A stretch of 23,364 nt of DNA from Granulicella sp. (GCA_027339965.1 DAHWNL010000010.1:1-23364), one strand, 5' to 3'; counted from the stretch's first letter, positions 4,346 through 22,650 are shown. Translations and numbers: made by a program. The notes: generated from the letters alone by a model not told the origin.

Positions 4346-4442
4346 AGAAAGAACCTCCGTTGCGCTGCATATCCCGAAGAGAGAGCTTCCCGTGACGCTA
4401 CGCTTACCTTGAGTTAGCTTGCTCCCTCGGCCAGACAGAAAC

Positions 4443-4458
4443 TGTATAGAAACGCACA
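4443..4458 (-). promoter_or_regulatory. Putative Crp/Fnr-type box upstream of ice-binding gene
   Basis: Minus strand TGTGCGTTTCTATACA(G), 21 nt, then CAAGCT (-10-like, 4421-4416). Confidence 0.6.
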
Positions 4459-4540
4459 CTTCCAGCCGAAGCAACGCAATCTTCATGCCGACAGCGCCGC
4501 TGCCGCCTGCGTTGGCTAGCATTCCTCAAACCGAACAGCT

Positions 4541-4690
4541 TCACCACCTGCCGCGGCGTCCGCTCACCAGGTTGAAGATCAGGATGATCACGGCTACAAC
4601 CAGTAGAAGGTGAATCAGCCCACCGCCGATGTGTAAGCTGAAGCCAAGAAGCCACAAAACCAGAACCACGACGAACAATGTCCAAAGCAT
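4541..4690 (-). CDS. Small membrane protein, lmo0937/DUF5670-like (49 aa; absent from ORF track)
   Basis: Hand translation MLWTLFVVVLVLWLLGFSLHIGGGLIHLLLVVAVIILIFNLVSGRRGRW; RBS GAGGAG. Confidence 0.88.
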   Translation of the reverse strand: MLWTLFVVVLVLWLLGFSLHIGGGLIHLLLVVAVIILIFNLVSGRRGRW

Positions 4691-4818
4691 AACGATCTCC
4701 TCTCAATCTCCATCTGCCCGCCAACATTCCAATCAGAACCAAACTGTCTTCTCTCTGGCTCGTAAGCAGGAAAGGTGCGGGCGCTATCTATCTGATAGAT
4801 CCCGCTGTCTTCAGGAAG

Positions 4819-5247
4819 TCACTTCGATCCGTCTTCCGCAACCATCAACGTGCTATGGAACAGATCCTGCACCGCGGGCGCAATGCCGGGATTCCCTTGC
4901 GCAAGCCCTCCCGTAACCGCATCGCGTTGAGCCAGCGTCGTCTGCAGGAAAGCTTGCAGGTTGGCATCAGGCGCCTGGCTCATCATCGCTTGAACCTGAT
5001 CAAAGAAGTGGGATGAATCCTGGCTCGCCAGGCCGTAATTCTTGAGGTTGGTCTCAAGATAAACTCGCCCGCAGAGCAGGCCCAGCTCGTCCATCTGCGC
5101 TTCGTCGCGTTCCGCGTTCAGCCGCTGCTTTACCTCACCGAGTTGATCCTCCAGAGCCTTGCCCTTCCGGTATCGCGGCACAAACCCTAGCAGAAACGCT
5201 GCTACCACCAGCGCGCCAATCACGATGAAACGCCTGTTCCATCTCAT
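4819..5247 (-). CDS. Hypothetical N-terminally membrane-anchored helical protein (142 aa)
   Basis: ATG 5247 with RBS GAGGGAG; TM segment FIVIGALVVAAFLLGFVP followed by coiled-coil-like and helical sequence. Confidence 0.75.
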   Translation of the reverse strand: MRWNRRFIVIGALVVAAFLLGFVPRYRKGKALEDQLGEVKQRLNAERDEAQMDELGLLCGRVYLETNLKNYGLASQDSSHFFDQVQAMMSQAPDANLQAFLQTTLAQRDAVTGGLAQGNPGIAPAVQDLFHSTLMVAEDGSK

Positions 5248-5543
5248 AAGATGAGGCTCCCTCTGTTTCCGCCTGCTGTTTACCAGGATGTACGGCACAC
5301 TGCTCTCCCTGTTCCTCTTCCCAATCCAGAACGGCGTCACACTCCTGTGGCATGCGCCTTACGACGCCATCTTCCCGGTAGGCGCCCTCAGGAATCCTGA
5401 GTGCAACAACTCCGGCCGCTTGCCATCATCGGCCGCACTGGATAGCAGAAACTCCGATGCGCTCGCAGCGTCACTTCTCTACACTGTCTGGCGCCCGGGA
5501 GTCCAATGTCTCTCCCGGGCGCTCAAGCATCCAGACAATCCGC

Positions 5544-6239
5544 CTAATCACCAGAGGCAACCGACTGCGCCTTCGCTCCACTCACAGCATTCAGAAAGGA
5601 ATCCGCACCCGCGGGCGTTGCTATCTTACCGTCGAGCACCCTCCGCGTGGAGACGTGACGGCCATAGAAGGCACGCATGGAATCATCGTCGCGCCGAACG
5701 TTGGCCCCGGAGAGCGTCAGTCCGGCAAACAGACCCTTGGCTCGCGAGTAGGTAAGGATCTGGGTGTTCAGATTCCAATCGGTGCTCGCGGAGGCGTTGC
5801 GCCCCACGGGTCCGGCCGCCGCCGAGGCGTCTACTCCAACCTTGAAGTTGGAGGATTCCAGACGCCGCATGCCCTTGTCGTTCTGGAAGATCATCACCAC
5901 ATCCACGCCCTCCACGCCGATCTGCAACCCCCAGCTCCCTCCGGTAATCGCGAAGAAGTCCGGCGCGCTCCAGCCGTGGGCCGTGCGGCAGGTGGCCACG
6001 CCCTTGCCGTTCTCCGCCCCAAAAATAAGGCCGCCCTTGATCATGTGAGGAACCACGGCAATGCACTTTGCGTGTTCCATCACCTCTTCCGGAATACCTT
6101 TATCCGGCGTGTCCATAATCTGGTGCAGCACCAGCGCAGCGTTGTCCAGCCGGTTCTGCGTATCTTCGCGCGACTCTGCCTTGGCCGCCATGGCCGCTCC
6201 CAGACTGAGGATCGCCACCATTGTCATAACTGTTTTCAT
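5544..6239 (-). CDS. Lipid-binding SYLF (Ysc84/DUF500) domain protein, exported
   Basis: Signal peptide; PDKGIP, AKCIAVVP, GWSAP, GGSWGLQIG, AAAGPVGR, TYSRAKGLFAG motifs. Start could be 6239, 6251 or 6263. Confidence 0.9.
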   Translation of the reverse strand: MKTVMTMVAILSLGAAMAAKAESREDTQNRLDNAALVLHQIMDTPDKGIPEEVMEHAKCIAVVPHMIKGGLIFGAENGKGVATCRTAHGWSAPDFFAITGGSWGLQIGVEGVDVVMIFQNDKGMRRLESSNFKVGVDASAAAGPVGRNASASTDWNLNTQILTYSRAKGLFAGLTLSGANVRRDDDSMRAFYGRHVSTRRVLDGKIATPAGADSFLNAVSGAKAQSVASGD

Positions 6240-6338
6240 GCGTCTCACCATTTTTCTACCCATGCGCAGCGTCTCTTGCTCTCCGCTCTTTGAGGCGCAT
6301 CAGGTAACTTCACGGTAGTCGTATTGTTTCTCGGCGTC

Positions 6339-6354
6339 TGAGCAATACAGCACA
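6339..6354 (-). promoter_or_regulatory. Putative Crp/Fnr-type box upstream of SYLF gene
   Basis: Minus strand TGTGCTGTATTGCTCA(G), 21 nt, then TACCGT (6317-6312). Confidence 0.62.
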
Positions 6355-6530
6355 TGGGCAGTAATATGCCCTCATGGCACAAGAGCGCTCTCCGGAGCTC
6401 TGTGTCGCCAGATCCTTTCACGGCTCCCGGCAACGGCTCGGAACCGGCGAAAGTGGGCCCTAAATGTATCTCGCGGCGCGGGAGTGCGGGTCGATCCTGA
6501 AACACCCGCATGGAGAAATTCCTGGAAACG

Positions 6531-6546
6531 TGTGCAAAAGGGAACA
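6531..6546 (+). promoter_or_regulatory. Putative Crp/Fnr-type box upstream of first Crp gene
   Basis: TGTGCAAAAGGGAACA(G), 21 nt, then CAAACT (6568-6573). Confidence 0.6.
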
Positions 6547-6767
6547 GACTATTAACCTCGTGGGGCGCAAACTAGTCTTGTCGCAGTTGTATCCGCGTCT
6601 CGGACGACCAAGAGAAGACGAGCTTTATGGCGCGCGAACGCCATGACCGTCGCAGATCGACTTCGATGCATGTCGGCATTCTCGCTGTTCGTTTTTCCAA
6701 CGGCTTGATCGTGCCCACATTCACTGGGTCCGTTCGTCGGAATCGCATCCGAAAGGTATCCTCCACT

Positions 6768-7478
6768 ATGTCCGAGCAGCGAAAGTCCGCATTTGATCCC
6801 GCTCAATTTCTAATGAGCGCAGGGCTGGGTAGAAGAATCGTCTGCCTGGAACCAAAGCAGCACTTCTTTTCGCAAGGCGATCCAGCCGACGCAGTCTTCT
6901 ATCTACAAAAGGGCCAGGCAAAGGTCACGGTTGTCTCCTCAGGCGGCAAGGAGGCCACCATCACGTTCCTTTCCGCAGGCGACTTTGTCGGTGAAGAGAC
7001 GCTGGCGGCGATTGTCGGGCCGCGCTTGTCCGCGGCCACAGCCATCAGCGCCTGCACCGCCCTCAAAATAGGCCGCGAAGAGATGGCTCGCGTTATGCAC
7101 GAAGAGCACGCCTTCTCTGATCTGTTCCTCAAGTTTCTTCTGCAGCGCAGCATGCGCATTCAGGCCGATCTCGTCGATCAGCTCTTCAACTCCAGCGAAA
7201 GGCGGCTGGCGCGCCTCCTTCTGTCGATGGCCGAATGTGGCCGGCCGGGTGAGCCAAACGGGCAACTCCCAAAGATCTCGCAGGAGACCCTGGCAGAGAT
7301 GGTCGGAACCACGCGGTCCCGCGTCAGCTTCTTCATGAACCGCTTTCGCAGGCTCGGCTTTATCGACTACAAGAGCGGCATCGTGGTCCACAAATCGCTG
7401 CTCAACGTAGTCCTCCACGATCAACTCCCGCCCGGCAACGCTGCAAGGCCAAAGCCGGCCCAGGACCTGATCCAGTAG
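6768..7478 (+). CDS. Crp/Fnr-family transcriptional regulator (paralogue 1)
   Basis: cNMP-binding domain (FFSQGDPADAVFYLQKG, GDFVGEE, PR) and HTH ISQETLAEMVGTTRSRVSFFMNRFR; likely start ATG 6768. Confidence 0.93.
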   Translation: MSEQRKSAFDPAQFLMSAGLGRRIVCLEPKQHFFSQGDPADAVFYLQKGQAKVTVVSSGGKEATITFLSAGDFVGEETLAAIVGPRLSAATAISACTALKIGREEMARVMHEEHAFSDLFLKFLLQRSMRIQADLVDQLFNSSERRLARLLLSMAECGRPGEPNGQLPKISQETLAEMVGTTRSRVSFFMNRFRRLGFIDYKSGIVVHKSLLNVVLHDQLPPGNAARPKPAQDLIQ

Positions 7479-7510
7479 CCCACCTGCCGAGAATCGAAAT
7501 GCGCAGCGCC

Positions 7511-7526
7511 TGTACAAAATGAATCA
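7511..7526 (+). promoter_or_regulatory. Putative Crp/Fnr-type box upstream of receiver/Zn-ribbon gene
   Basis: TGTACAAAATGAATCA(G), 21 nt, then CACTCT (7548-7553) preceded by TGn (extended -10-like). Confidence 0.6.
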
Positions 7527-7593
7527 GACACTGAAGCGGATGGATGTCACTCTGGCTTCAGATGCTAAATCCATTTGACAGGTGACATTGCGT

Positions 7594-8457
7594 ATGCCCT
7601 ACCCAACCAGGAGTCTTCTCATCGTGGATCACGAGGCGTGGATTCGAAGAACATTGTCGCTCTTTGCTGCCGGCCTGGGATTTCTGGTGCGTTCTTCCAG
7701 GGACGGTCTTTCCGCGTTGCGCGAAATCCGCCTGGATCAGCCAGATGTTCTACTGGCCGAACTCAACTTGCCAGACATGTCCGGACCTCAACTGCTCTCT
7801 GTGGTCAGGCAACGGCTTCCAGCAACTCTGGTCATCGCCATGAGCGGAGCGTCCGGCGGCAGGGACGCGCTATCTCGCATTCCCGCGGATGCCTTTTATC
7901 AAAAAGGCAGCGGTCCAGCCAGCCTCTCCAGTTTATTGAGTACACCACCCGGAATAAGACGGCAAACCCCGCCGGATTCCGATTACATGGAGCCTCTGCT
8001 GACTCAGCATCATCCGTGCGGCTCCAATGGGACCGCGCAAGCCCGGATCACTTGTCCAGAATGTCACAGGGCGTTTCATGTTGCTCTTGATCGTCTTGGG
8101 GATCTCACGTGCAACGTGGAATGTATCTATTGTGACTATGCGATTCAGTACCCAGCCTCCATGGTCACGCCACTCGCCAAAATGCCCCCGCAGGCCGCGC
8201 GGCAAATCGCGGGCCTGGCGGCAGCCTGCAAGCCTGGCAAAAGCCCCGGTCCGCAGTTGATAGCAGCAGGAAAGAGTCCAATCTATGCATACCACGGCAA
8301 AAACCAACCTGCTTCTTCGCGCGAGCATCGAGTTACCCGAAGGCCTCAGCCTGGCGACGGAAGAATTCCACGAAGGCTGGAACTTCTCGCGGTCGGTCAA
8401 CGCAAACCACCTGGAAAAGAGACTGAAGAGTCGTGGATGGAACACCGTCAAGAGTGA
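7594..8457 (+). CDS. Atypical response-regulator receiver protein with C-terminal Cys4 Zn-ribbon
   Basis: REC fold LLIVDHE...PDVLLAELNLPDMSG...VIAMSG...ADAFYQKG, then CPECH...CIYC. The 3' tail overlaps the next gene by 173 nt and may be read-through. Confidence 0.75.
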   Translation: MPYPTRSLLIVDHEAWIRRTLSLFAAGLGFLVRSSRDGLSALREIRLDQPDVLLAELNLPDMSGPQLLSVVRQRLPATLVIAMSGASGGRDALSRIPADAFYQKGSGPASLSSLLSTPPGIRRQTPPDSDYMEPLLTQHHPCGSNGTAQARITCPECHRAFHVALDRLGDLTCNVECIYCDYAIQYPASMVTPLAKMPPQAARQIAGLAAACKPGKSPGPQLIAAGKSPIYAYHGKNQPASSREHRVTRRPQPGDGRIPRRLELLAVGQRKPPGKETEESWMEHRQE

Positions 8458-8815
8458 GGCCGGCGGCGGAACGCTGAGAAGCGGCGTGGGAGATACAGCG
8501 CAGCAGGCGATCGCCAGTGCGCTCAAACTCGGTCTCCGCCAAATCTCTGAGCACTTCAATGCGGTGGAGATTGAGCAAATCCAATTGACGCAATATCCCT
8601 GGCTCTTTCTGGCCAGAGTCAAAATCAATCCCTTCCGCATTCCGCAAAGTCCCACGTTGTCTTGGCCGGACCATCTGGAGCCGCCGCCGCCCAAGCCCCG
8701 GCGGGCATGTTTTTCCCTCAATCCATCCCTGCCGCATCTACACTCTTGCAGCATCACGCCAAGGCTCAAGGAGATGCTGCTTGTTTCCAGAAGCGAACAC
8801 AAGGAAATCGAATGA
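8285..8815 (+). CDS. Hypothetical protein (176 aa)
   Basis: ATG with upstream AGGAAAG; protein-like alpha/beta composition (EEFHEGW...SGVGDTAQQAIASALKLGLR...FNAVEIEQIQLTQYPW). No family recognised. Confidence 0.7.
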   Translation: MHTTAKTNLLLRASIELPEGLSLATEEFHEGWNFSRSVNANHLEKRLKSRGWNTVKSEAGGGTLRSGVGDTAQQAIASALKLGLRQISEHFNAVEIEQIQLTQYPWLFLARVKINPFRIPQSPTLSWPDHLEPPPPKPRRACFSLNPSLPHLHSCSITPRLKEMLLVSRSEHKEIE

Positions 8816-9327
8816 TCCTGGAAATAGTGCTGTTTCCGCTCATCATTCACAGGGCCCTCCGGCTCATCGAAGGACGACGCGAGCAAGAGCAGGCCGGTAT
8901 TTCTCTTCAGCCGAGCAAAAGCCTTCCGTTGCATGCACCACCCCCGCGCCGATACCGCAATCATCCGCACGCTCGTCCAGCGTCTGGGGTTGCGCAGCGC
9001 AAACCAAACCCACCTTCTTCGCCCAAACATCTGGCGAAAGGGGACGCAGAAAGAGCCCAGCGAGCAGGCCATCTGCCAAACGCAACTTCGCGGGATCAGA
9101 TGTCGCTGAATGGCAGCGCGCACCCCTGCGCCATAGCCAGGCAGACGTGGTCCAACACTCGGTCAATTCCGGCTTCCGCTGTCTACGCTGCCCCTCCCTC
9201 TTCGCCCCGTGACCGCGCGGGCTCTTCGGTCGCAACTGCGGTCGAGCCTGAATTCGCATCCAGCCAGGCCAGCAGACGGCGAATGCTGCCTGTGGCCAAT
9301 GCCACGCAGAAGTCGGCCGCCCCGTAA
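8812..9327 (+). CDS. Possible hypothetical protein with hydrophobic N-terminus
   Basis: ATGA overlap with the upstream stop (8812-8815), RBS AAGGA at 8801-8805, MILEIVLFPLIIHRAL...; the remainder is low-information and overlaps the GH130 gene end. Confidence 0.3.
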   Translation: MILEIVLFPLIIHRALRLIEGRREQEQAGISLQPSKSLPLHAPPPRRYRNHPHARPASGVAQRKPNPPSSPKHLAKGDAERAQRAGHLPNATSRDQMSLNGSAHPCAIARQTWSNTRSIPASAVYAAPPSSPRDRAGSSVATAVEPEFASSQASRRRMLPVANATQKSAAP

Positions 9328-10250
9328 TACATCTGAATCGAGTCGCCATCCGCGCCGATGGTTTGCCCACAGGGGAACACAACGTCTTTCACATCTCCGC
9401 CACGTTCATAGGCCTCTTCCGGCCCGAACATCCACGAGTTGCCGCGCTGCAGGCAGACCGTCGGATCTTCTAGATCGAACAGAGCAAGGCCCAGCCGATA
9501 AACGCTTCCCGAAGCCGTCTGCCTCACCCCATGGTAGATCATCAGCCAGCCCTTCTCCGTCTCGATCGGCGGAGAACATAGCCCGATCTTGTTTGCATCC
9601 CACCACCCCCCCCGCCGTGCTTCCAGAATAATCTTGTGGCTCCCCCAATGGCGCAGGTCCGGTGAGTAGGAGATCCACATATGAGCTCCCAGTGACGTTA
9701 CTGGCCGATGGATCAGTGCCCAGCGCCCTCCAATCCTCCGGGGCAGCAGCGCCGCATCTTTATCTTCTGGAGGCATGACGACGCCGAATCGCTCAAAGCT
9801 GTGAAAGTCCTTGGTCAGCGCCAGGGAAACTCCCGGTCCTCCGCGCGCAAAGGATGTATAGGCCACTGCGTATTGATCCAACTCCGGAACGTACGTGATA
9901 CGCGGATCTTCAATCCCCCAGATCTCTTCGGGATGCTCCACCGGATTTGCGATCAGCGTCGGCTTCCGCTCGACCTGCCAGGCATCCACTCCATTGCTGG
10001 AACGGGCAGAGCATAGGTGCGATAGGCCGCTTCTGTCTTCCACGCGGCAAAGCAGCAGCGTGTCCCCATCGGGCAGGCGCACCGCTCCTGCGTTGAATAC
10101 GCTATTGATCGGATAGGGCCAGTGCTCCCGGCTGAGAATCGGATTGGCTCGATGGCGCGTGAACAAGGGTTGATCGGCACATGCCTCAAGCTTTGCATCT
10201 TCGAGTAGGACAGCTTCCGGCGACTTATTCGGTACGGCGGTCGGTTTCAC
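9183..10250 (-). CDS. GH130-family glycosidase/mannoside phosphorylase-like protein
   Basis: NPIL, VFNAGA, GIEDPRIT, KDAALLP, ALIHRP, PPIETEKGWLMIYHGV, YERGGDVKDVVFPCG, MYYGAAD; GTGA overlap with the upstream gene. Confidence 0.9.
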   Translation of the reverse strand: MKPTAVPNKSPEAVLLEDAKLEACADQPLFTRHRANPILSREHWPYPINSVFNAGAVRLPDGDTLLLCRVEDRSGLSHLCSARSSNGVDAWQVERKPTLIANPVEHPEEIWGIEDPRITYVPELDQYAVAYTSFARGGPGVSLALTKDFHSFERFGVVMPPEDKDAALLPRRIGGRWALIHRPVTSLGAHMWISYSPDLRHWGSHKIILEARRGGWWDANKIGLCSPPIETEKGWLMIYHGVRQTASGSVYRLGLALFDLEDPTVCLQRGNSWMFGPEEAYERGGDVKDVVFPCGQTIGADGDSIQMYYGAADFCVALATGSIRRLLAWLDANSGSTAVATEEPARSRGEEGGAA

Positions 10251-12628
10251 AGGTGGCGCTCCGTTTCCTGGTGCAGTTTCCTTGTGTTGGCGATATCGAC
10301 GGCCTGCATTTCCAGCAGAGACATCAGGAAGGAAAGAGTTGATTCCGCTCCCTCGTTTTCATTCACCCGGTCGGGATGGAGCCCATCCCTGCATCCGCCC
10401 GTCACTGGATCGTAAAGCGGCACCCTCAGGTCGTTCTTGCCCAGGTACCAGAGGAACACCCCTCTTGCTTCCTCATGCCACCGGCCCTCCCCCGTCAGCC
10501 TGTACACCTCAAGACATGCGGAGATGGTTGCGCAAGCCTCGACGGGCTGCTGATCAAAACGCATCTTCCGGTTTCCTTCGATGAAGAATCCGTGGGATCC
10601 AATCGGCACGAAGATCTCCTGGTCGTCGCGGTGCTGCTCGGCCACAAGCCATTCCAGAGCCTCCACTCCCGCTTCGATCATTCGCTGGTTCTTACTCCTC
10701 CAACCCACCAGAATCAGAGCCTGCGGCAGCCTCGCATTGGAGTAGGAGAGCCTCTTCTCGAACCAGCGCCAGCTCTCGGAGCGGCTGCGCTCGTAAATGT
10801 CCAGTAGCCGATTGGCAAGCGTGTTGCGAATTCTCTCTATGTCTCGGTCGCCGGGAAACCAGTCGAGATAGGCCTGCAAACCAAGAACACCGTAAGCCCA
10901 CGCGCGCGGACTGCTGAATCGAAGCACCGCAGGCACGGCGGCCTCAAAGAGCCTTCCCGCTGCTCCGCGCAGTCCCGCATTCCGAGATCGACCCAGAACA
11001 GTTCCCAAAGCCCACAATGACCTGCCATGACTGTCTTCCGAGCCAATCTCCTCAAGCCATCGGCGGTCATATCCAAGAAAGTTTCGGAACCTTCCGCTCC
11101 CGGAATTGAAGGCGAGCCAGAGAAAGGCCAGATATCGGCGGGAAAGACTGGAAGGTTCAATCTCATTGTCGGGAATCCTGTATTCATCCTGAAGTGTGGT
11201 CACAATCAGCGCCCTCGCGTTGTCGTCGGTCGTATAGCCCTCTCTCGCGTTGGGTACTGAGAATATCGCGTGCTGCAACATGCCGGTGTCATCTGTCATA
11301 TTGCAGAGGTGCGTCGCATTCAGCACCGGCAAGCTATAGACCCGACTCTCCGTGAGACTCTCATGTGGCTTCGCTCTCGGCCAAAGTGTTCGCTCAAACC
11401 GCGCGCGTTGAAAACTCGCCATGTACGCTCGCGCGGCTTTCGGCCAGGTCGTTCCCCGCGAGTACAGATAGGCGCGCTTCCGCATCGCGTGCCGCTCTGC
11501 ATCGTTCTCCAGCAATGCAACCACTTGATCCGCGATGGAGTCGAAATCGTCGAAAGGAACAATCACCCCTCTTCGGCTCGCTAGCAACTCCTTGGCATGC
11601 CAGTACGGCGTGGAGACGATTGCCTTTCCCGCTCCCAGTGCCATGGCCAGCGTGCCAGACACAACCTGAGCCTCCTGCCGGTAAGGCGTGATGTATATAT
11701 CCGCTGCGCCTACCTGCTCCATCAACTCCTCGGCGCTCACAAACCGATTCTTGAAGATCACCTGGGAGGAAACGCCAAGCCGCTCCGCCAGAGCGCGTAA
11801 CTCCTCGCGGTAGCGCTCGCCCTCCTGCCGCCTCACATGGGGATGCGTCACTCCAGAAACGATATACACCACGTTCGGATGCCTTGCCAGAATTGCGGGC
11901 AGAGCTCGGATCACGTTTTCAATACCCTTGTTCGGAGACAAGAGACCGAATGTGAGCAGGACGGATTTTCCCTCCGCACCAAACAGGTCTTTAAAGTAGT
12001 TGGGATCCATGAAGGGCATCTCGGGCACTCCATGCGGAATCACATCGATCTTGCCACCGGGAACAGCATAGATGTCGCGCAGCAATTGCCCCGCCAGTTC
12101 ACTCATCACGATCAGCCGATCAGAGAGCCGCGTAATCTCTTCGAGCACAGCACGCTGATTTATGTCCGGATCGCGCAGCACCGTATGCAACGTGGTCACC
12201 ACAGGCATCTTCAACTTCCGCAGCAAAGCCAGAATATGCCCTCCTGCCGGCCCGCCGTAGATGCCGTATTCATGCTGCAGACAAACCATGTCGTTGCCGT
12301 TGAAGTTCAAAAAATCCGCGGCCCGCACGTAGGAAGCGCAATCTTCCTGTTCAAGCTCAAGACGCACTTGCGGAGGGTAATCGTAGCGCGATCCCGGATC
12401 ATTGACCGGAATCGTAAAGAGCCGCCCTTCCCCATACTCTGTCGTCAACGCGGTACCCAGGTCGGCCGTAAATGTGGCAATGCCGCACTCTCGCGGCAGA
12501 TAATTGCCGATAAAGCCAATGCGCGTCGGCAATGGTAGGTCGCAGCGGTTCGACCCGACTAGCGCAAGCGCCGCCGGTTCGGCCCCCTCGGCCCCGTCCT
12601 TGCGATGCGTTGATTCCGTTAACGACAT
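10247..12628 (-). CDS. GT4 glycosyltransferase fused to a C-terminal glycoside-hydrolase-like helical domain (793 aa)
   Basis: GT-B motifs GNYLPRECGIATF, LQHEYGIYGG, IPHGVP, TFGLLSPNKGIE, ITPY...SGTLA; C-terminal DDTGMLQHA, YTTDDNARAL, SEDSHGR, LSYSNARLPQA, FDQQPVEA, CRDGL, NEGAEST. Confidence 0.9.
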   Translation of the reverse strand: MSLTESTHRKDGAEGAEPAALALVGSNRCDLPLPTRIGFIGNYLPRECGIATFTADLGTALTTEYGEGRLFTIPVNDPGSRYDYPPQVRLELEQEDCASYVRAADFLNFNGNDMVCLQHEYGIYGGPAGGHILALLRKLKMPVVTTLHTVLRDPDINQRAVLEEITRLSDRLIVMSELAGQLLRDIYAVPGGKIDVIPHGVPEMPFMDPNYFKDLFGAEGKSVLLTFGLLSPNKGIENVIRALPAILARHPNVVYIVSGVTHPHVRRQEGERYREELRALAERLGVSSQVIFKNRFVSAEELMEQVGAADIYITPYRQEAQVVSGTLAMALGAGKAIVSTPYWHAKELLASRRGVIVPFDDFDSIADQVVALLENDAERHAMRKRAYLYSRGTTWPKAARAYMASFQRARFERTLWPRAKPHESLTESRVYSLPVLNATHLCNMTDDTGMLQHAIFSVPNAREGYTTDDNARALIVTTLQDEYRIPDNEIEPSSLSRRYLAFLWLAFNSGSGRFRNFLGYDRRWLEEIGSEDSHGRSLWALGTVLGRSRNAGLRGAAGRLFEAAVPAVLRFSSPRAWAYGVLGLQAYLDWFPGDRDIERIRNTLANRLLDIYERSRSESWRWFEKRLSYSNARLPQALILVGWRSKNQRMIEAGVEALEWLVAEQHRDDQEIFVPIGSHGFFIEGNRKMRFDQQPVEACATISACLEVYRLTGEGRWHEEARGVFLWYLGKNDLRVPLYDPVTGGCRDGLHPDRVNENEGAESTLSFLMSLLEMQAVDIANTRKLHQETERHL

Positions 12629-13495
12629 GACGCCTTGCCCTTCCTTCTATCCGTTCAAGTGCACAGGCCCGCCGCACAATGCCTATTCGGACACCGCCGC
12701 CTGGCTCAGGGTTGGGATCTCATCCGACGCGGTGCCTGGTCTATCTCCTGTTTGCCGTCTGCGCCAGCGTCTCGTCGCAAGCTTCCCGCAACGTGTGTCG
12801 CTGGATCTCGCGTGGCTGGAATCCCGCATCGGCGACGTGTAAACCCGGATACTCTACGACTCCAACGGAATCGCCTTCTGCGGTATGAAATGGCCGCACG
12901 ATCCTTGAATGCGTACGCTTCACAGTATGGTCGCCGGCATCGCCCTGTCTTCGCCCAAACGATCTTCGCTAACAGGAGCCCTGCAACCCCAGAAAGCGCC
13001 ATCCGGGATCACCCGTCGTTCCTTGTCACCCAGGCTGGACAGGGCAGATCTTCCACAAGCATTCACGCCTCGCCAATGGGTTCCCCAGCCGGTGCCAGGC
13101 CATTCGATAAGCGGACCCTTTGCTTCCCTCAAGCGGAATGCAGTTCCACGCCTGCGCATCTCTCAATCCTGTCGGTGCCTTCGAACCATGGAACCGATCT
13201 AGCAACCGACGACAACAGGGGAACTCCCAAAGAGCGAAAGGTTCGTGTGCAAGCTCTCTCAAAATCTGGCGCTTCCCCTTCTCAGGTGCACCGCTGGACC
13301 CCGGAAAGACCAGCCGTATCCGGCTGGCCTTCCGGCGGGCCCAGATGGAACTCCTTGCCGCAACGGGCACAAAAAAGGTGACGCCTTACCGAGTCCTTCT
13401 TGCTACGCCCATCACAGCTCCAATACTTTCGGTTACATGCTCACCAGATAGATGCCTGTGGTTGAAGAGGCAAGAACCATGGTCGCCACAGTAAG

Positions 13496-15028: not shown

Positions 15029-15116
15029 AATATCTCCTTTAGAGAAAAAACTACTTTACCGCGTTGGTATCTGAAGAGGGCTGGCGAAGCCAGGCAGGTT
15101 TCAACCGGGCGATAGA

Positions 15117-15308
15117 TCAATGACCAACCCGGAAATGCTTGAGTTGGTCAAATAGACCGAAAAGATTTCCGATCCACAGGACCACGACAATCACCACCAG
15201 ACCATTGAGAATCGCTTTCACCTGACTCTGCATCGGAATAAACCTGTTCACAAGCCACAGCAACACTCCTACTGCCACAAGCGTCAAAATTACGTTGGTT
15301 AACGGCAT
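15117..15308 (-). CDS. Small two-TM membrane protein (Thivi_2564-like, 63 aa)
   Basis: MPLTNVILTLVAVGVLLWLVNRFIPMQSQVKAILNGLVVIVVVLW...; RBS GAGGA. Confidence 0.85.
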   Translation of the reverse strand: MPLTNVILTLVAVGVLLWLVNRFIPMQSQVKAILNGLVVIVVVLWIGNLFGLFDQLKHFRVGH

Positions 15309-15464
15309 ACTTTGTTCCTCATCTCCCGTACTGCGCCCTCTGTTGGCTCAAGGCGCCCTCGGGCACGCCAGGAACATTCGGGTCACGTGTCGCACGAAGC
15401 CGTCAGAACGAAATCAGTGAATATCGGCTTCATTGTCATTGTTTCAAAACAAGGATCAAAGAAC

Positions 15465-15480
15465 TGAGCTAAACAGCACA
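15465..15480 (-). promoter_or_regulatory. Putative Crp/Fnr-type box upstream of Thivi_2564-like/OmpA genes
   Basis: Minus strand TGTGCTGTTTAGCTCA(G), 21 nt, then AACAAT (15443-15438). Confidence 0.6.
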
Positions 15481-15607
15481 CCACGGAGGAGCGTCCAACT
15501 TAGCCGGGCGAGCGGCGCTCAGCCTGTATTTGGCTCAGGTTGCAGGCAGTCCCCGCCATTTGCAGCCTCGTTCGGTCCCATACAACTCCGCAGGGAGCAC
15601 TTGCAGA

Positions 15608-15675
15608 TTGCCCAGTTCCGTGTTCCCAGCCTCGCGTTGCCCAGCCTCGCGTTGCCCAGCCTCCACGTTGCCACG
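15608..15675. repeat. Degenerate ~15-bp tandem repeat (TTGCCCAGCCTCGCG, ~4 units)
   Basis: ttgcccagttccgtg / ttcccagcctcgcg / ttgcccagcctcgcg / ttgcccagcctccacg / ttgccacg. Confidence 0.8.
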
Positions 15676-15796
15676 CTACACCGGCAAGGCGTCCTTCACG
15701 CCGTTGATCCTGCGCTTCTTTCAGTCACCATCGGGAAAGACAGTTCAACAGAATCTTAGCCAGTAGCCTGAACACGCCGTGAGTGTTACCTCAGCG

Positions 15797-17305
15797 TTAT
15801 GTCTTATTCTCCGGCCGCTGGGACGCTTCTTGCTTTGTGCCCGATTGGCTTGTAAGTACAGGGATCCCGCTGATAAGGCCCTGATACTCTGTCAGGCGTT
15901 TGCCTAAAATCACCAATCCCTTGGAGGTGATCTCATATTCGCGAATGTCCTTGGCATGGTTTCCGCCCCGCATCTTGATCACCACCATGATCTTGCGGAG
16001 CTGGCCATCGATCGATACATACCGCAGCCTCAGAATGTCATCGCACAGGAAGGAAATAGAGTAGGTGCTGAAGGGAAACTCCGTGAAGGACTCATCCACC
16101 TCAACCGTGCTCAGAATTGTCACTCCAATTCCTGTCAGGGCGAAGATCATTCGGTACAGCGATTCGCGAAAGTCGGCACGGAAACCGGGCGACAGAGCCA
16201 TCTCAAATCCAGCCAGAGAGTCGATCACCAGCCGCTTCGCGCCAATCTTCTGCACCGCGTCCAGAATCGACTGCATCGTCTCATCCACGGAGAGATCCAA
16301 CGGACGAAGATACAGGATCGTGAGCTTCCCGTTCTCTTGCGGCGTTTCCAGATCCAGGCCTAAACTCGTGGCTCGCTCCGCATAGGCTTCCGGGCGCTCT
16401 TCAAAGACAGCGACAATTCCCGGCTGCCCCTGGCGAATGCCTTCCGCAATGAACTGCGTGGCCAGCACGGATTTCCCGGTTCCCGACGATCCTGCCACCA
16501 GCACGCTATCCCCCTCCCTCACCCCGCCACCCAGCATCTCGTCCAACTCCGCAACGCCAAAGGAAAGTCGCCGCTCGGCAGGAGGATTTCTCCTGCTCGC
16601 GCTCAACCCAAAGGTGCGGGAGAAGGCCTGGATCCCGGCATCGGTAATCCGGAACGTATGCAGCCCCGGTACGGAATCCTGACCGCGTAGTTTCATGATC
16701 TGCAGCTTGCGCACTACGGAATTGCGTTCTGCCGTCTGGCGCAACCAGAACAGCCCATCGGCGACGGTAAAGATCGGATTGTCACGCAAATCCTCCTCCG
16801 CGTATTCACCGATCAGGAAGGTGGTCGCCTGCCAGCTCGCCAGAAACAGCGCCAGCCTTTGCAGAAACGATTGCAGATCCATATCACTCTGCGGCTTGCG
16901 CACCATCGTGCGAAAAGAGTCCACAACCACAACGGAGGGATTGGCCCTTTCCACCTCCCGGGTGATCTCCTCCAGCACCGCGCCCAGATCCTTCTCCAGC
17001 ACAACCTGGCTCAGGTTGATAAAGCGAATGGAATCCGGCAGCTTGGCCGGATCGAAGAAGGTGTACTGCTGCTGGTACCGCATCATCTTGATGGCGGACT
17101 CGCCCAGAATCGTGAAATAGATCGCCGGACGTTCAGGGGTCGCATTCGCAAAGACGACTTGGTGAGCTAGTGTGGTCTTCCCGCTTCCCGGGGCGCCCGC
17201 GATGATGTTGAATGAGAACTCCGGGAGCCCACCGCCCACAATCTCGTCAAGCCCCGGAACTCCCGTCGGCAGTCTGTTGATCTTCACCTTGTCCTGAGTG
17301 CTCAC
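15797..17305 (-). CDS. kaiC: Double-domain KaiC-like RecA-superfamily ATPase (502 aa)
   Basis: RLPTGVPGLDEIVGGGLP, two Walker A motifs (GAPGSGKT, GSSGTGKS), Walker B (VVVDS, LVIDS), MKLRG/IKMRG; KaiC phosphosite-equivalent ISFLCD. KaiC-like, not necessarily a clock. Confidence 0.9.
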   Translation of the reverse strand: MSTQDKVKINRLPTGVPGLDEIVGGGLPEFSFNIIAGAPGSGKTTLAHQVVFANATPERPAIYFTILGESAIKMMRYQQQYTFFDPAKLPDSIRFINLSQVVLEKDLGAVLEEITREVERANPSVVVVDSFRTMVRKPQSDMDLQSFLQRLALFLASWQATTFLIGEYAEEDLRDNPIFTVADGLFWLRQTAERNSVVRKLQIMKLRGQDSVPGLHTFRITDAGIQAFSRTFGLSASRRNPPAERRLSFGVAELDEMLGGGVREGDSVLVAGSSGTGKSVLATQFIAEGIRQGQPGIVAVFEERPEAYAERATSLGLDLETPQENGKLTILYLRPLDLSVDETMQSILDAVQKIGAKRLVIDSLAGFEMALSPGFRADFRESLYRMIFALTGIGVTILSTVEVDESFTEFPFSTYSISFLCDDILRLRYVSIDGQLRKIMVVIKMRGGNHAKDIREYEITSKGLVILGKRLTEYQGLISGIPVLTSQSGTKQEASQRPENKT

Positions 17306-17757
17306 GCTTTTCTCCCGTTCTCCGAATTGCTATCGTCGAGGGCCGCTCCCGGCCACTGAACGCGCAGCAGACTCAACGTCAAACTTTCACCAAGGAAGAT
17401 AAGGAGTAGGCCGAGTATGTGGATGATAAGGATCTCTACTCCCCCGCCTCCGGCACACCCGTCAGCCCCATCCTTGGCCAAGCCCGTGGGATGTTCCATC
17501 TTGCCCAGGCCATGTAACGATCCGTCCCCGGAAATCTGCACTTCTCCAACCCTGGGTTCCTCCGCCTTGGCCAATGTCATGGCCCGAGAGGCGAGCGACA
17601 AAAAACCGGCAACGCTGGCAAACTCACAAAGGCTCCGCCGCAGCTTCTCATAGACCACAAGCATTGCGGGCTCGGGAGACCCCAACGCCTTGCCCAGATT
17701 GGCTTCGTAAGCAAGAAGCCGGTCAGCTAGATCTCGCATCTTTGCGTCGGTCGTCAT
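17302..17757 (-). CDS. Hypothetical KaiC-associated protein B (151 aa)
   Basis: GTGA overlap with kaiC start; aligns by eye with the upstream ORF (YEKLRR, GFLSLASRA, LGLLLIFLGE). Start 17757 chosen from that alignment; the frame is open to 17859. Confidence 0.8.
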   Translation of the reverse strand: MTTDAKMRDLADRLLAYEANLGKALGSPEPAMLVVYEKLRRSLCEFASVAGFLSLASRAMTLAKAEEPRVGEVQISGDGSLHGLGKMEHPTGLAKDGADGCAGGGGVEILIIHILGLLLIFLGESLTLSLLRVQWPGAALDDSNSENGRKA

Positions 17758-17907
17758 GTTTAACCGTTCATAGTTCCTTGCGGAAATTCTCAAAAGCTGT
17801 CTCAGGCTTCGCTGCGACCCGTGCAACCACTCCATCTCCTCCTGGAGTGGCTCCGTCAAATGGCGTTCACTCTCAAGCGTCTCTCTTAGGATCTGGCCCA
17901 GCAGAAC

Positions 17908-18606
17908 TTAATTCATGTAGCGATTCGTCTCGGAGGCAACCACGTCTGGTTGCGAGTCGCCAGCCTGGCTTCGGATCAAAAGAAATACGTCCAAAACGGA
18001 GGCAATACTGCGAATATTCCCCGCAACACTTACCAGCCCATCTTCCATGTCCGGATGTTTGTTCGCCAGGATCTCAATATGCTCGCTCACGCTCCTCAAT
18101 CGATCAACTTCCAGCAAAAGATCCCCAAAAACCGCCGCAATCACCAGTCGATCGATCCCTGAATCTGGCTTGTCTGCTGCCAACGCAGCCGGCGCAGCCC
18201 TGTCGTCGAACTGTAGACGTAGATCTTCTATCAAACGCAGCGTTGTTGCTTCGCCAAGAAAGGCAAGAAACAGCCCGAGCAACTGTTCAATCAGAACCAC
18301 CCCGGCCTCACCGTCCTCATCCGCTCCCATCCCGGATTCAACTTCGTCGAACCCGCGCAGTCCTCCATTTGCCGTTACCTGCACCGCGCTCAGCCGCGGA
18401 GATTCCGACTTGGCCAGAGCCAAAGCACGCGAGGCGAGCGCTTGAAAGCCATCAACACCCATCGTCGCCGCAAGTTGACGGCGCAGCCTCTCATAGACCC
18501 GCACCGTCGCAGGCTCCGCACGCAGAGATCTCGTAGCCGCGTCGACTTCGTGAGCAACCAGAGTTCGGGCCAATTCACGCGTTGTATGTGGAGGCATGGT
18601 GCCCAC
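17908..18606 (-). CDS. Hypothetical KaiC-associated protein A (paralogue of B plus helical C-terminal extension)
   Basis: YERLRR, GFQALASRA, LGLFLAFLGE shared with 17302-17757; extra ~100 aa amphipathic helical tail. Start 18606 (GTG) or 18597 (ATG). Confidence 0.8.
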   Translation of the reverse strand: MGTMPPHTTRELARTLVAHEVDAATRSLRAEPATVRVYERLRRQLAATMGVDGFQALASRALALAKSESPRLSAVQVTANGGLRGFDEVESGMGADEDGEAGVVLIEQLLGLFLAFLGEATTLRLIEDLRLQFDDRAAPAALAADKPDSGIDRLVIAAVFGDLLLEVDRLRSVSEHIEILANKHPDMEDGLVSVAGNIRSIASVLDVFLLIRSQAGDSQPDVVASETNRYMN

Positions 18607-18763
18607 CCCTTTCCATCGAGTCTACGCCATCATCTTGAGCGTAACGCTTTCACGATTCCGGCACGATCGCGGCAAATCTTCTGCCCGAAGACTCCCGCCG
18701 CCATCTGCTGGCGCCAACCTGGCGTCTCGCAACTCAAGACTACTCAAAACACCTTCACCAGAA

Positions 18764-18779
18764 TGAGCAAACAGATACA
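18764..18779 (-). promoter_or_regulatory. Putative Crp/Fnr-type box upstream of kaiC-like operon
   Basis: Minus strand TGTATCTGTTTGCTCA, 21 nt, then TAGTCT (18742-18737). Confidence 0.58.
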
Positions 18780-18943
18780 TTTCCGAAAAGACCATCTCCC
18801 GCTCCATCGAGCTTCCAGCGAACCTGCCAGGCACAAGCTTCTCCACTGGTCCCGCTTCAGGGGTAGGATGAGGATAGTGTCGGCGAACGTAGCATCTCTC
18901 CAATGGCCATCCGGCTCGGCTGCGATCGGAAGCGAGTACTACA

Positions 18944-19648
18944 ATGACTGCACTGCAACAGCATGAATTTGATACTGCCGCCTTCTTGATGAGCCCTGGT
19001 CTGGGGAAAAGCACCCTCCAGTTTGCCCCAAAGGAGGCGTTTTTCTCCCAGGGTGATCGTGCAGACTCGATCTTCTATCTTCACCAGGGGCGCGCCAAGG
19101 TCACTGTCGTCTCTGCAACCGGCAAGGAAGCTACCATCGCGCTCCTTTCCGCAGCTGACTTTGTTGGGGAAGAGGCGCTTGCCGCGATACCCGGACTGCG
19201 TCTGTCTACGGCTACCGCTATTACCGCCTGCACTGCTCTCAGAATCAGCCGCGAAGAGATGATCCGCGTGATGCATGTGGAGCGCAGCTTCTCAGATCTC
19301 TTTGTCCGGGCCCTGCTGGAGCGCAGTATGCGCACCCAGGCCGCGCTCGTCGATCAGCTCTTCAACTCCAGTGAGAAGCGCCTCGCGCGGATCCTGCTGC
19401 TGATGGCGGAATTGGGTCCACCGGGCGAACCGGATCAAGGCATTCCAAAAATATCCCAGGAGATGCTTGCGGAGATGATCGGAGCCACCCGCTCCAGAGT
19501 CAGCTTCTTCATGAACCGGTTTCGTCAACTCGGGTTTATCGAATATAACGGACGCATCAAAGTACATCGGTCGCTGTTGAATGCAGTCCTGCTCGATCAA
19601 TTCCCAGGTTCTTCTCCCGTGGGGAAGAAGCATTCATCTTGCGCCTGA
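18944..19648 (+). CDS. Crp/Fnr-family transcriptional regulator (paralogue 2)
   Basis: FFSQGDRADSIFYLHQG, ADFVGEE, HTH ISQEMLAEMIGATRSRVSFFMNRFR; closely similar to 6768-7478. Confidence 0.93.
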   Translation: MTALQQHEFDTAAFLMSPGLGKSTLQFAPKEAFFSQGDRADSIFYLHQGRAKVTVVSATGKEATIALLSAADFVGEEALAAIPGLRLSTATAITACTALRISREEMIRVMHVERSFSDLFVRALLERSMRTQAALVDQLFNSSEKRLARILLLMAELGPPGEPDQGIPKISQEMLAEMIGATRSRVSFFMNRFRQLGFIEYNGRIKVHRSLLNAVLLDQFPGSSPVGKKHSSCA

Positions 19649-20939
19649 AGAACTCAAAGCTCCGTCGCCCGTTCCTCTTGGCTAGGTACATGGCGGCATC
19701 GGCATTCTTGATCAGCGTCTCCGCATCCAGGCCGTCCTCGGGATAGACACTCACCCCGATGCTTGCCGTCACCCGAACATCGCGATCGTCCGCAACATGG
19801 ACCTCCGCTACCGCCTGCAACACCCTTTTGGCAGTCGAGCATGCATCTTCCGGCCCTTCCAGATCCTGCAGTAGGATCAGGAACTCATCGCCGCCCTGCC
19901 TGCTCACCGTGTCTGGCGCGCGCACGCAATCCAGCAATCGCTTCGCCACGGAGCGGAGAACTTCGTCGCCGGCTGCATGTCCCAGCGTGTCATTGATCTG
20001 CTTGAACCCATCCAGATCCAGGAACATGATGGCGGCTCGCCGCTGGCGGCGATGTGAAAGTGCAATCGCCTGACCGATCCGGTCACAAAAGAGCAATCGA
20101 TTCGGCAGCCCCGTCAAAGGATCATGTTCGGTCAAATGAATCAGATATTCCGCCTGCGCTCTCGCCGCGCTTACGTCGCGAAAGACAATCACCGCTCCTG
20201 TAACCCTCCCTTCAGGGTCGTGGATGGGAGCAACAGAATCCTCGATGAAGAACTCACGGCCGTCACGGTGGATCAGTACACAATTCAACGGCAAACTTCC
20301 CGCCAGATCCTCAACGGTCGCCTTCGCCATCGGATTCCGGATGGTATCGCGTGTCGCGGCGTCCACAATGCAAAAAACATCGGTCAGGGGCCGACCAACC
20401 GCCTCACTCAACGTCCAGCCCATCATCTTGCCCGCCACCGGGTTCAGAAACGTGATCTTTCCCGTTACGTCGGTGCTGATCACGGCATCTGCAATGCAGC
20501 TGAGTGTGGACTGGGCCAGGTCCCTTTCCCTGCTCACGGCCTCTTCCCGCATCTTGCGCTCCATCGCATGCTCCAGAAAGCCCATCAGTCGAAGTGGTTC
20601 CATCTGTTCCTTGAGGAGATAGTCTTGCGCTCCCTCGCGGAGGGCTTGGATTGCCTTCGGCTCATCGTCTTGCCTGGCCAGCAGCACAAAAGAGGCTTCA
20701 GGAGCCCTTCTGCGCGCCCACCCCACCGCCTCCGGCCCATAAAGCTCGAACAGTCCCAGATCGAGCAGAACAATGTCGACGAAGTGCTCTGCGAAATAGG
20801 CTTCCGCGTCCGTCAGACTCGCCACCGGGGTTAATGCAAAAGCGGATTCTCTTCTATCATTAAGCATCGCACGAATCGTGCGCGCCTCTTCGGGATCATC
20901 CTCGATCAACAGAACTGTCCTTGACGGCCTTTTTCTCAT
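19557..20939 (-). CDS. REC-PAS-GGDEF diguanylate cyclase
   Basis: REC (LLIEDD, DIVLLDLGL, QDYLLK), PAS (IADAVISTD...FLNPVA...GAVIVFRDVS), HDPLTGLPNR, FLDLDGFKQIND, I-site RAPD, SRQGGDEF; likely start ATG 20939. Confidence 0.9.
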   Translation of the reverse strand: MRKRPSRTVLLIEDDPEEARTIRAMLNDRRESAFALTPVASLTDAEAYFAEHFVDIVLLDLGLFELYGPEAVGWARRRAPEASFVLLARQDDEPKAIQALREGAQDYLLKEQMEPLRLMGFLEHAMERKMREEAVSRERDLAQSTLSCIADAVISTDVTGKITFLNPVAGKMMGWTLSEAVGRPLTDVFCIVDAATRDTIRNPMAKATVEDLAGSLPLNCVLIHRDGREFFIEDSVAPIHDPEGRVTGAVIVFRDVSAARAQAEYLIHLTEHDPLTGLPNRLLFCDRIGQAIALSHRRQRRAAIMFLDLDGFKQINDTLGHAAGDEVLRSVAKRLLDCVRAPDTVSRQGGDEFLILLQDLEGPEDACSTAKRVLQAVAEVHVADDRDVRVTASIGVSVYPEDGLDAETLIKNADAAMYLAKRNGRRSFEFFRRKMNASSPREKNLGIDRAGLHSTATDVL

Positions 20940-21061
20940 CGAATGTACCTGCTGGGAGCAAACCGATATCACTTGCTTGGAACCGATAGCTTCACAAAAC
21001 CTTCCCTGACGACATCCCTCACGAATAGATCGAAGCATTCCAAACCCCTCGCAACTTGGGC

Positions 21062-21077
21062 CGTTCTCTTCTGTACA
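21062..21077 (-). promoter_or_regulatory. Putative Crp/Fnr-type box upstream of diguanylate cyclase
   Basis: Minus strand TGTACAGAAGAGAACG(G), 22 nt, then AATGCT (21039-21034); matches the 6531 box at 13 of 17 positions. Confidence 0.5.
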
Positions 21078-22616: not shown

Positions 22617-22650
22617 CGCAAAAGCCCGCAGCAACGCAAAAGCCCGCAGC
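22617..22650. repeat. 16-bp direct repeat, period 18
   Basis: CGCAAAAGCCCGCAGC at 22617-22632 and 22635-22650. Confidence 0.85.

Follow-up and report, generated by a model that had tools for sequence, protein, structure and literature searches.

We analysed a 23,364-nucleotide stretch of DNA from Granulicella sp. (GCA_027339965.1, DAHWNL010000010.1:1-23364), here called the window, which is the entire contig C64 of an assembly of 88 contigs and 3.82 Mb. It holds two paralogous genes of the Crp family, crp1 and crp2, and eight 16-bp boxes, each followed at 21 or 22 nt by a -10-like hexamer. As judged from sequence comparison, the boxes represent a promoter class that is real, conserved and linked to an uncharacterised subfamily of Crp proteins, and the Crp-family proteins encoded in the cluster itself are likely to bind them. 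The best reading is that they would make up a class II activator regulon under Crp, with positive autoregulation, that covers part of the cluster. Seven of the boxes had been picked out in a preliminary description. Their positions, hexamers and spacers (21 nt in six, 22 nt in one) were confirmed, and all seven matches of the full pattern in the window are intergenic and aimed at the next gene. The eighth, at 21285-21300, had been overlooked and is the highest-scoring box of the window. The site centre of -41.5 given earlier holds, but each predicted transcription start moves one base further on. The crp genes, boxes and predicted targets are as follows, with bit scores from a matrix learnt without this window.

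3482-4345 (-), gene for an ice-binding-like protein with a PEP-CTERM-like tail (PF11999, PF07589), predicted target
4443-4458 (-), box of 8.9 bits; CAAGCT at 4416-4421, spacer 21 nt; predicted start 4409; ice-binding-like gene
5544-6263 (-), gene for a SYLF/Ysc84 protein, predicted target
6339-6354 (-), box of 18.1 bits; TACCGT at 6312-6317, spacer 21 nt; predicted start 6305; SYLF/Ysc84 gene
6531-6546 (+), box of 16.6 bits; CAAACT at 6568-6573, spacer 21 nt; predicted start 6580; crp1, candidate autoregulatory site
6768-7478 (+), crp1, cNMP_binding and HTH_Crp_2 domains, 236 amino acids, recognition helix TTRSRVSFFMNR
7511-7526 (+), box of 13.7 bits; extended -10 element TG-n-CACTCT, hexamer at 7548-7553, spacer 21 nt; predicted start 7560; receiver-domain gene
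7582-8457 (+), gene for a receiver-domain protein with a weak zinc-ribbon match, predicted target
13496-15028 (-), OmpA-domain gene, predicted operon with the Thivi_2564-family gene
15117-15308 (-), Thivi_2564-family gene, predicted operon with the OmpA-domain gene
15465-15480 (-), box of 16.8 bits; TG-n-AACAAT, hexamer at 15438-15443, spacer 21 nt; predicted start 15431; Thivi_2564-family gene, then ompA-like gene
15797-17305 (-), gene for a KaiC-like ATPase, predicted operon with two hypothetical genes
17908-18606 and 17302-17859 (-), two paralogous hypothetical genes, predicted operon with the kaiC-like gene
18764-18779 (-), weak box of 5.9 bits; TAGTCT at 18737-18742, spacer 21 nt; predicted start 18730; two hypothetical genes and kaiC-like gene
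18944-19648 (+), crp2, paralogue of crp1 (69% identical), recognition helix ATRSRVSFFMNR; without a class II box directed at it
19557-20939 (-), gene for a REC-PAS-GGDEF diguanylate cyclase, predicted target of two boxes
21062-21077 (-), box of 9.3 bits; AATGCT at 21034-21039, spacer 22 nt; predicted start 21027; diguanylate cyclase gene
21285-21300 (-), box of 23.5 bits; TATGGT at 21258-21263, spacer 21 nt; predicted start 21251; diguanylate cyclase gene, with a 310-nt leader between

The pattern of the preliminary description (TGTRY-N8-WCR, followed by xAxxxT) is real in the window. In 1000 dinucleotide shuffles of its 5114 intergenic bases the full pattern occurred 0.12 times on average and at most twice, against seven times in the actual sequence, and the box alone was found 11 times against 1.31 in the shuffles. 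This test is post hoc, the pattern having been drawn from the same sites, and held-out DNA was therefore used: 77 loci of other genomes around crp1 relatives, chosen by the crp gene and excluding this window, with 268 kb of intergenic DNA. Carried over to these loci, the pattern kept a peak at spacer 21 (39 of 348 boxes, against 9-25 at 31 other spacers), but the box by itself proved too loose, its 348 matches lying within the 284-382 obtained with other half-site gaps. Elsewhere in this genome the pattern gave no spacer peak, with 21 of 599 boxes at 21 nt.

An unguided count of dyads in the intergenic DNA of the loci ranked fragments of one word at the top. An expectation-maximisation search yielded the motif (c)TG[A/T/g][G/T]C-AAWWTT-G[C/A][T/A/c]CA(g) from 296 sites at 16.6 bits, with TGWKC-AAWWTT-GMWCA as its 16-bp consensus palindrome. 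Three of four seeds, the CRP seed among them, reached this one motif, and the FNR seed led to A/T-rich DNA only. The frequency of G2 is 0.99, of C5 0.94, of T1 0.89 and of A6 0.71; positions 3 and 4 vary. As the search imposed symmetry, the dyad was tested separately by its half-sites, which pair 126 times at a gap of 6 and 12 times or fewer at each of 15 other gaps; selecting on one half-site recovers the other in 197 of 562 cases, compared with 18 of 708 in the genome control. This pairing supports the Crp-type geometry (5+6+5) that had been claimed. Sites of at least 10 bits number 11.1 per 10 kb in intergenic DNA of the loci, 0.53 in coding DNA and 0.47 in other intergenic DNA of this genome. 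The earlier view of the box as a relaxed CRP box was not upheld, the site being a different one with C5/G12 fixed and positions 3-4 loose. In the intergenic DNA of the 77 loci strict TGTGA-N6-TCACA has no match, as against 252 strand matches of the new box, and FNR-type TTGAT-N4-ATCAA has two strand matches only.

Sites centred at -41.5 are the classical class II sites. Among 300 held-out intergenic sites read in both orientations, xAxxxT stands at 21 nt in 164 of 600 cases and at 22 nt in 119 of 600, the counts at 28 other spacers being 16-60; with near-duplicates removed these figures become 121 of 491, 74 of 491 and 13-41. A -10-like hexamer lies at one of the two spacers at 253 of the 300 sites, and the promoters so defined face a gene start in 232 of 268 cases, against 180 of 323 for the other orientations. 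The unselected bases T-15 (0.47) and G-14 (0.55) are in the register of an extended -10. The end of the box plus GAC[A/T] sits at the -35 position, where the match to the -35 hexamer is three of six or less in 248 of 275 promoters. TTGAC promoters of this genome peak at 17 nt (25 of 285) and 18 nt (35 of 283), which is 21 and 22 less four. The proposed class II position is thus supported: if the -10 is set at -12 to -7, the centre falls at -41.5 or -42.5. According to the accessible text of PMC10187061, in the class II arrangement of CAP, too, the site covers the -35 region and is separated from the -10 hexamer by 21 nt.

A further arrangement is seen in loci L085-L092 (families f3 and f5), where 22 tandem pairs of boxes lie exactly 22 bp apart from centre to centre (for example L091:9242-9279 and L092:9762-9799) and are followed by CTGACA-like and TATAAR elements. 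In the Acidobacteriaceae loci the corresponding count is 1 of 247. The tandem pairs of f3 and f5 are a distinct double-site promoter architecture.

The congeneric genome G342 aligns with the window in collinear blocks of 78-93% identity. Key bases of the boxes are changed at 2 of 56 positions, against 354 of 1691 other intergenic bases, in a count that leaves out the 18764 box, which falls in an alignment gap. Seven of the eight boxes are retained. The counterpart of the 4443 box scores 8.9 bits with a spacer of 22 and an unchanged hexamer, and that of the 21285 box 17.8 bits with hexamer and spacer unchanged. The weak 18764 box has a G342 orthologue of 18.2 bits (TAGGCT at 21 nt) and counterparts of 20.7 bits in loci L002 and L009. 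Both altered key bases fall in box 21062-21077; because its TG is lost there, this box, the weakest-supported of the seven, is probably decaying. Boxes of 16-18 bits occupy the matching position in L046 and L057. In other loci such a promoter precedes the homologues of several targets: SYLF in 15 of 19 cases, crp in 65 of 109, the receiver gene in 15 of 23 and the Thivi_2564-family gene in 13 of 17. The ice-binding-like gene has no homologue in the 77 loci and yet is present and boxed in G342, which suggests that it was recently recruited into the regulon.

On the evidence of co-occurrence, the box is shown to be tied to one Crp subfamily (helix R-S-R-V-S-F) across Acidobacteriota and Alphaproteobacteria. 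The subfamily, taken as sequences with E at most 1e-40 to crp1, has at least 8000 relatives in the protein collection and is present in 61 of 151 genomes of a class sample and 18 of 201 of a phylum sample. A strict pattern that catches a quarter of the sites gave 309 strand matches in 60 genomes that carry the subfamily, compared with 72 in 80 genomes that lack it. Four or more matches were found in 36 of the former and 3 of the latter, and the mean count is higher with the subfamily in all 7 of the 7 families that hold both kinds of genome. The control comprised 80 of the 90 genomes lacking the subfamily (G122, G123, G124, G128-G131, G134, G135 and G148 were left out); a reversed-pattern control was not relied on because its dinucleotide make-up differs. 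Site density declines with distance from crp: there are 21 sites per 10 kb in the nearest 1 kb and about 5 per 10 kb at a distance of 8-10 kb. The six remaining crp genes of this genome have no 10-bit intergenic site closer than 10 kb, and the 7 control genomes that carry a second Crp type hold 3 matches in all. These last two results, like the counts of carrier genomes, are free of the choice of loci by crp. Since the box tracks the subfamily and lies close to its genes, the local Crp paralogues with the RSRVSF helix, proposed earlier as the binders, are likely to be so.

The association extends to distant loci. Twenty of these, from seven other families plus one more of f1, contain 78 sites of at least 12 bits in 16 loci, against 0.1-0.5 per locus in controls, and eight short loci of other classes contain 6 sites in 4 loci, all with a -10 (control 0.29). 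Eight sites of 20-25 bits are located beside crp genes with an RSRVS helix on three plasmids of Bradyrhizobium japonicum and Methylocapsa, and 6 of these 8 have a -10 at 21/22 nt. On a Bradyrhizobium CB82 plasmid (L083:15001-15638) the subfamily crp matches in two pieces, with no annotated gene and no strong box in the locus, as expected if boxes decay along with their regulator.

A regulon spread through the whole genome of this organism was considered and rejected. Outside contig C64 there is no spacer peak, and of 32 intergenic sites of at least 10 bits only 3 have a -10, the best scoring 15.1 bits. The genome (G000) also contains eleven perfect TGTGA-N6-TCACA boxes, on contigs C6, C21, C32, C36, C41, C44, C49, C70 and C80; ten are intergenic and eight have a -10 at 21/22 nt. 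Three Crp genes with a RETV helix are found on C17, C21 and C32, and probably read these boxes as a separate canonical CRP-type regulon. Two Crp codes, as told from sites and helices, coexist in this genome.

Crp1 and Crp2 belong to the CRP/FNR superfamily, matching PF00027 at 62-63 bits and PF13545 at 44-46 bits, above the cut-offs, and their best PDB matches are Crp proteins, with the best solved relative at 61 bits. They fall far below every named NCBIfam model (CRP 54 against 266, Fnr 21.5 against 228, FixK 24 against 300). The genome has nine HTH_Crp_2 matches, among which crp1 and crp2 are alone of their kind; the closest relatives of crp1 are Acidobacteriaceae records. The recognition helix aligns to RETVNK of mycobacterial Crp. 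Where the canonical helix reads R-E-x-x-x-R/K, most of 154 subfamily sequences read R-S-R-V-S-F (R183 in 151, S184 in 146, R185 in 152, V in 145, S in 132 and F in 125). In CAP, R180 reads G2 while E181 and R185 read the position-4 pair, and in Clr, which is without E181, helix position 3 is occupied by Lys197, the reader of the G opposite C6 (PMC10187061, accessible text). Base-contact residues are otherwise well conserved in the Crp family (PMC12531629, in its accessible part), and residue changes at 180/181 track changes in the site (PMC1274295, likewise). By analogy, G2 would be retained because the equivalent of CRP R180 is kept, as Arg183, to read it; positions 3-4 would be free because the equivalents of CRP E181 and R185 are lost; and C5 would be fixed because the new arginine at helix position 3, the invariant Arg185, would read the G opposite it, as Clr Lys197 does with C6. 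This arginine, paired with C5/G12 in the DNA, is the new invariant feature. Loss of the glutamate had earlier been said to fit a loose position 4. Both position-4 readers of CRP are indeed replaced (Glu181 by Ser, Arg185 by Phe), but the site is a different one and not a relaxed CRP site.

In the cyclic AMP (cAMP) pocket of the same 154 sequences, E72 (148) and R82 (136) are kept. S83 is replaced by L, M or I, position 127 is T in 65, I in 43, Y in 20 and V in 10, and position 128 is Q in 111 and E in 39, so that the signatures E72, R82-S83 and T127-S128 do not occur as a set. Because the phosphoribose-holding residues, Gly-Glu and Arg, are retained in the pocket and the RS and TS signatures are absent, the signal is probably something other than plain cAMP. 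A class III nucleotide cyclase was not found in the genome with the queries used. An AlphaFold2 model from a 29-sequence alignment had a mean predicted local distance difference test score (pLDDT) of 49 and was not used.

Taking these results together, we consider it quite probable that a Crp dimer of the island stands in for a poor -35 element, recruits the housekeeping polymerase and amplifies its own supply through crp1. The dimer would bind centred at -41.5 or -42.5, covering the poor -35 hexamer (CA of the box end plus GAC[A/T]), and would bring in polymerase with the housekeeping sigma factor, held by an often extended -10 (TG-n-xAxxxT). Because crp1 has a box, the circuit would amplify itself; it would then switch on portable genes of general-stress type together with second-tier signalling genes (receiver protein, KaiC-like ATPase and diguanylate cyclase). 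That the dimer would activate rather than repress, we infer from the geometry alone.

Several observations weigh against this activator reading. No -10 is present at 21/22 nt at 47 of the 300 sites, and the -10 test, resting on two bases, is lenient. The tandem pairs of f3 and f5 precede better-looking promoters (CTGACA...TATAAR), which fits repression too. The strict pattern is missing from 7 of the 60 subfamily genomes, and 3 of the 80 genomes without the subfamily have four or more matches; the sampled genomes are related and not independent. The presence of crp next to boxes in the loci is by design. No excess of sites was seen in 4 of the 20 distant loci, in 4 of the 8 short loci of other classes or in 2 of 5 alphaproteobacterial loci (Methylocystis and Bradyrhizobium CB82), and the 7 matches of the Granulicella locus do not exceed the permutation maximum, which is 8. 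Genes were called by a crude script, supplemented with homology masks, and the script missed two genes of the window. A group 1 sigma gene (PF00140) was not found in the assembly (completeness 98.9%) with the queries used, probably because of an assembly gap.

Of the alternatives, repression by the same Crp survives best, though we regard it as unlikely. The dimer would then sit over the -35 of sigma-70 promoters until released by a signal, in keeping with the overlap between box end and -35 position, with the 22 tandem pairs in front of promoters that look able to work unaided, and with crp being the commonest target; negative autoregulation is common. The position of the box is nevertheless fixed to two spacers, a constraint needed by activators and not by repressors. 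The -35 sequences are poor in most promoters, as given above, and for the seven boxes that lie in 1300-21299 a consensus scan detected no sigma-70 promoter.

Less likely again is that another dimeric regulator, carried by the island or encoded elsewhere, binds the palindrome and that the RSRVSF Crp is merely one of its targets. The loci were selected by crp, matches occur in some genomes lacking the subfamily (7 in G014, 4 in G048 and 4 in G092), and a second Crp type sits in Granulicella and Acidisarcina islands. Against this, every other regulator family is confined to 20 or fewer of the 77 loci, the 7 genomes with only the second Crp type are nearly devoid of matches, its copy in this genome (on C27) has no intergenic box nearby, and the 5+6+5 geometry is that of Crp sites.

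We think it very improbable that the element is the upstream part of an alternative-sigma promoter with no separate activator. General-stress regulons are sigma-driven elsewhere and the targets resemble them; the -10 shows a tendency towards C at positions -13 and -8, and the genome has 13 matches to sigma-70 region 2. The two halves of the dyad predict each other, however, whereas sigma elements are asymmetric, the TTGAC promoters of this genome share the weak -10 with C at -8, and no sigma gene recurs in the loci. A hybrid of Crp plus a stress sigma could also be envisaged. That the boxes were a by-eye pick from chance matches is hardly credible for the set, even with 600 matches of the earlier box in the rest of the genome, its lack of enrichment over other half-site gaps in the loci and two or three of seven boxes below 10 bits, since the motif was found de novo in held-out DNA, with a spacer peak, footprinting in G342 and recurrence across phyla, which answers the worry over selection bias voiced earlier; single weak boxes such as 4443 and 21062 could be non-functional.

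Under the preferred reading, a class II Crp activator regulon, the targets predicted from box positions are crp itself and genes of general-stress type. The 77 loci contain 222 target genes, including crp (56), receiver (24), SYLF (15) and Thivi_2564 (14) genes, three unnamed families with 10-11 each, fatty-acid desaturase (8) and Usp (7). Rarer are CsbD (4), GT4 (4), KaiC-like (4) and diguanylate cyclase (2) genes. Genes for KaiB, PPK2, G6PD, YtxH, YflT and DUF3309 lie in the neighbourhood, and alphaproteobacterial islands add PRC-barrel, GlsB, trehalose synthase and Ku genes. CsbD, YtxH, YflT and Usp-type families are markers of the general stress response, and such marker content is present in the islands.

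Several known systems bear comparison. E. coli CRP is likewise a dimeric protein with a cNMP domain and helix-turn-helix that binds a 16-bp dyad with a 6-bp centre and TG at positions 1-2 (PMC10187061, accessible text). It differs in its helix (RETVGR against RSRVSF), its site (TGTGA against TGWKC with an A/T-rich centre), its RS/TS signatures (here R-L/M and T/I/Y-Q/E) and its catabolic regulon, here replaced by a local island regulon. Clr of Sinorhizobium meliloti, with site HGTYHC-N4-GRWACA and helix RPKVNR, resembles the present subfamily in its 16-bp site, loose position 4, loss of Glu181, basic residue at helix position 3 and patchy, horizontally spread distribution (same source, same extent). 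Clr has conserved C6/G11 with Lys, whereas here C5 goes with Arg at helix position 3 and position 6 is A at 0.71; Clr also keeps the cyclic-nucleotide signatures lost here, and the match to its structure (PDB 7pza) is 33 bits. The sites of NnrR (ctTTGcg-N4-cgCAAag) and HcpR2 (GTAAC-N4-GTTAC) likewise came to light through comparative genomics, and they vary together with helix positions 180/181, according to the accessible part of PMC1274295. NnrR shares C at position 5 but has T at position 2, where G reaches 0.99 here, and none of the denitrification or hcp genes targeted by the two recur in the loci. MrpC of Myxococcus is a Crp-family protein that binds its own promoter and a TGTY-N8-RAC site of the TGT-N10-AC type (PMC4320627, in part). 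Compared by site and not by protein sequence, it lacks the fixed C5/G12 and the A/T centre, and its developmental regulon is genome-wide. In content the targets resemble the general stress regulons of sigmaB, sigmaS and EcfG (CsbD, YtxH, YflT, Usp, DUF3309, transglycosylase-associated, lmo0937-family, PRC-barrel, trehalose synthase and Ku genes); unlike those, the promoters here have a Crp-type dyad with a housekeeping-like -10, and the regulator lies within the island.

A wider proposal seems possible to us, although we lean somewhat against it: that a large, unstudied subfamily of Crp proteins, reading a DNA code of its own, governs a general stress response that is portable and amplifies itself, that it works through the housekeeping sigma factor in the role that sigmaB, sigmaS or EcfG have in other bacteria, that it moves on islands and plasmids between Acidobacteriota and Alphaproteobacteria and recruits local genes by the 16-bp box, and that its ligand is not cAMP. 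To our knowledge almost no regulon is known for Acidobacteria, which are abundant in soil, and the present results hint at how soil acidobacteria may switch on genes of stress and desiccation type. The subfamily gains a predicted regulator, binding site, promoter class and target list, and the helix-to-site code of Crp proteins gains a candidate new pair, Arg at helix position 3 with C5. One member, bll2244 of Bradyrhizobium diazoefficiens USDA110, is listed with proteomic support and a mapped start in the accessible material of PMC4842269, and its occurrence in a tractable model makes the proposed steps testable by routine methods. The promoter tables of the same source, which include a start only where an RpoD-, leaderless- or RpoN-like promoter is predicted, contain none of 18 twelve-base box variants and no bll2244 start in the part available. 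No description of the motif, the helix or bll2244 was found in the literature; subscription papers and regulon databases lay outside the search, and an earlier prediction may exist.

By its composition and gene content, the C64 stretch behaves as an island. Its G+C content is 57.5% over 1200-21500 against a mean of 60.7% (eighth lowest among 148 windows), the majority of its proteins are without a close paralogue elsewhere in the genome, and the contig breaks at transposase-type sequences on both ends. The remaining genes and features are these.

8-673, transposase gene (DDE_3), left contig end
1396-1581 (-), csbD-like gene, no good box here, boxed in other loci
1805-3139 (-), alpha-amylase-family gene, no good box here, boxed in other loci
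4541-4690 (-), DUF5670 gene, downstream of the SYLF gene on the same strand
4819-5229 (-), open reading frame (orf), downstream of the SYLF gene on the same strand
8285-8815, hypothetical orf, overlapped by the receiver gene
9183-10250 (-), GH130 gene, upstream box decayed here
10247-12628 (-), GT4 glycosyltransferase gene, upstream box decayed here
21541-22983 (-), Ada-like methyltransferase/AraC gene and a gene for a hypothetical protein of 104 amino acids, without boxes
23036-23362, transposase-like frame, right contig end, presumably IS66-like

Activation of the whole cluster, as first claimed, is too wide, several genes having no box of their own above 5 bits that faces them. This applies to the csbD, amylase, DUF5670, GT4-GH130, crp2 and ada genes and to orf 4819-5229, whose best boxes are below 5 bits or face away. 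Some of these genes may be read through from boxed promoters, as may be the case for orf 4819-5229 and the DUF5670 gene from the SYLF promoter; the Ada-like gene and its neighbour are probably outside the regulon. Homologues elsewhere have a box in 3 of 4 cases for csbD and 1 of 2 for the amylase. Four further matches of 7-13 bits in the window fall in coding DNA. The 78-codon frame that follows the eighth promoter matched no protein in the loci and was left out of the gene count.

Upstream of the GT4 gene, 12630-13495 (-) is a degenerate second copy of the orf 8285-8815 family with stop codons, and the decayed box (13246-13261) lies inside it. The receiver gene, 291 codons long, shares 173 bases with orf 8285-8815. 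Its homologues are 160-196 amino acids long and the G342 match stops at residue 162; the real end may lie earlier, or a stop codon may have been lost. The hypothetical genes at 17302-18606 have no Pfam or NCBIfam match, and a protein-Atlas look-up of orf 17908-18606 gives unnamed Acidobacteriota clusters only. The pair is 44% identical across about 80 amino acids and precedes the kaiC-like gene here and in other genomes; the two products are possible KaiC partners.

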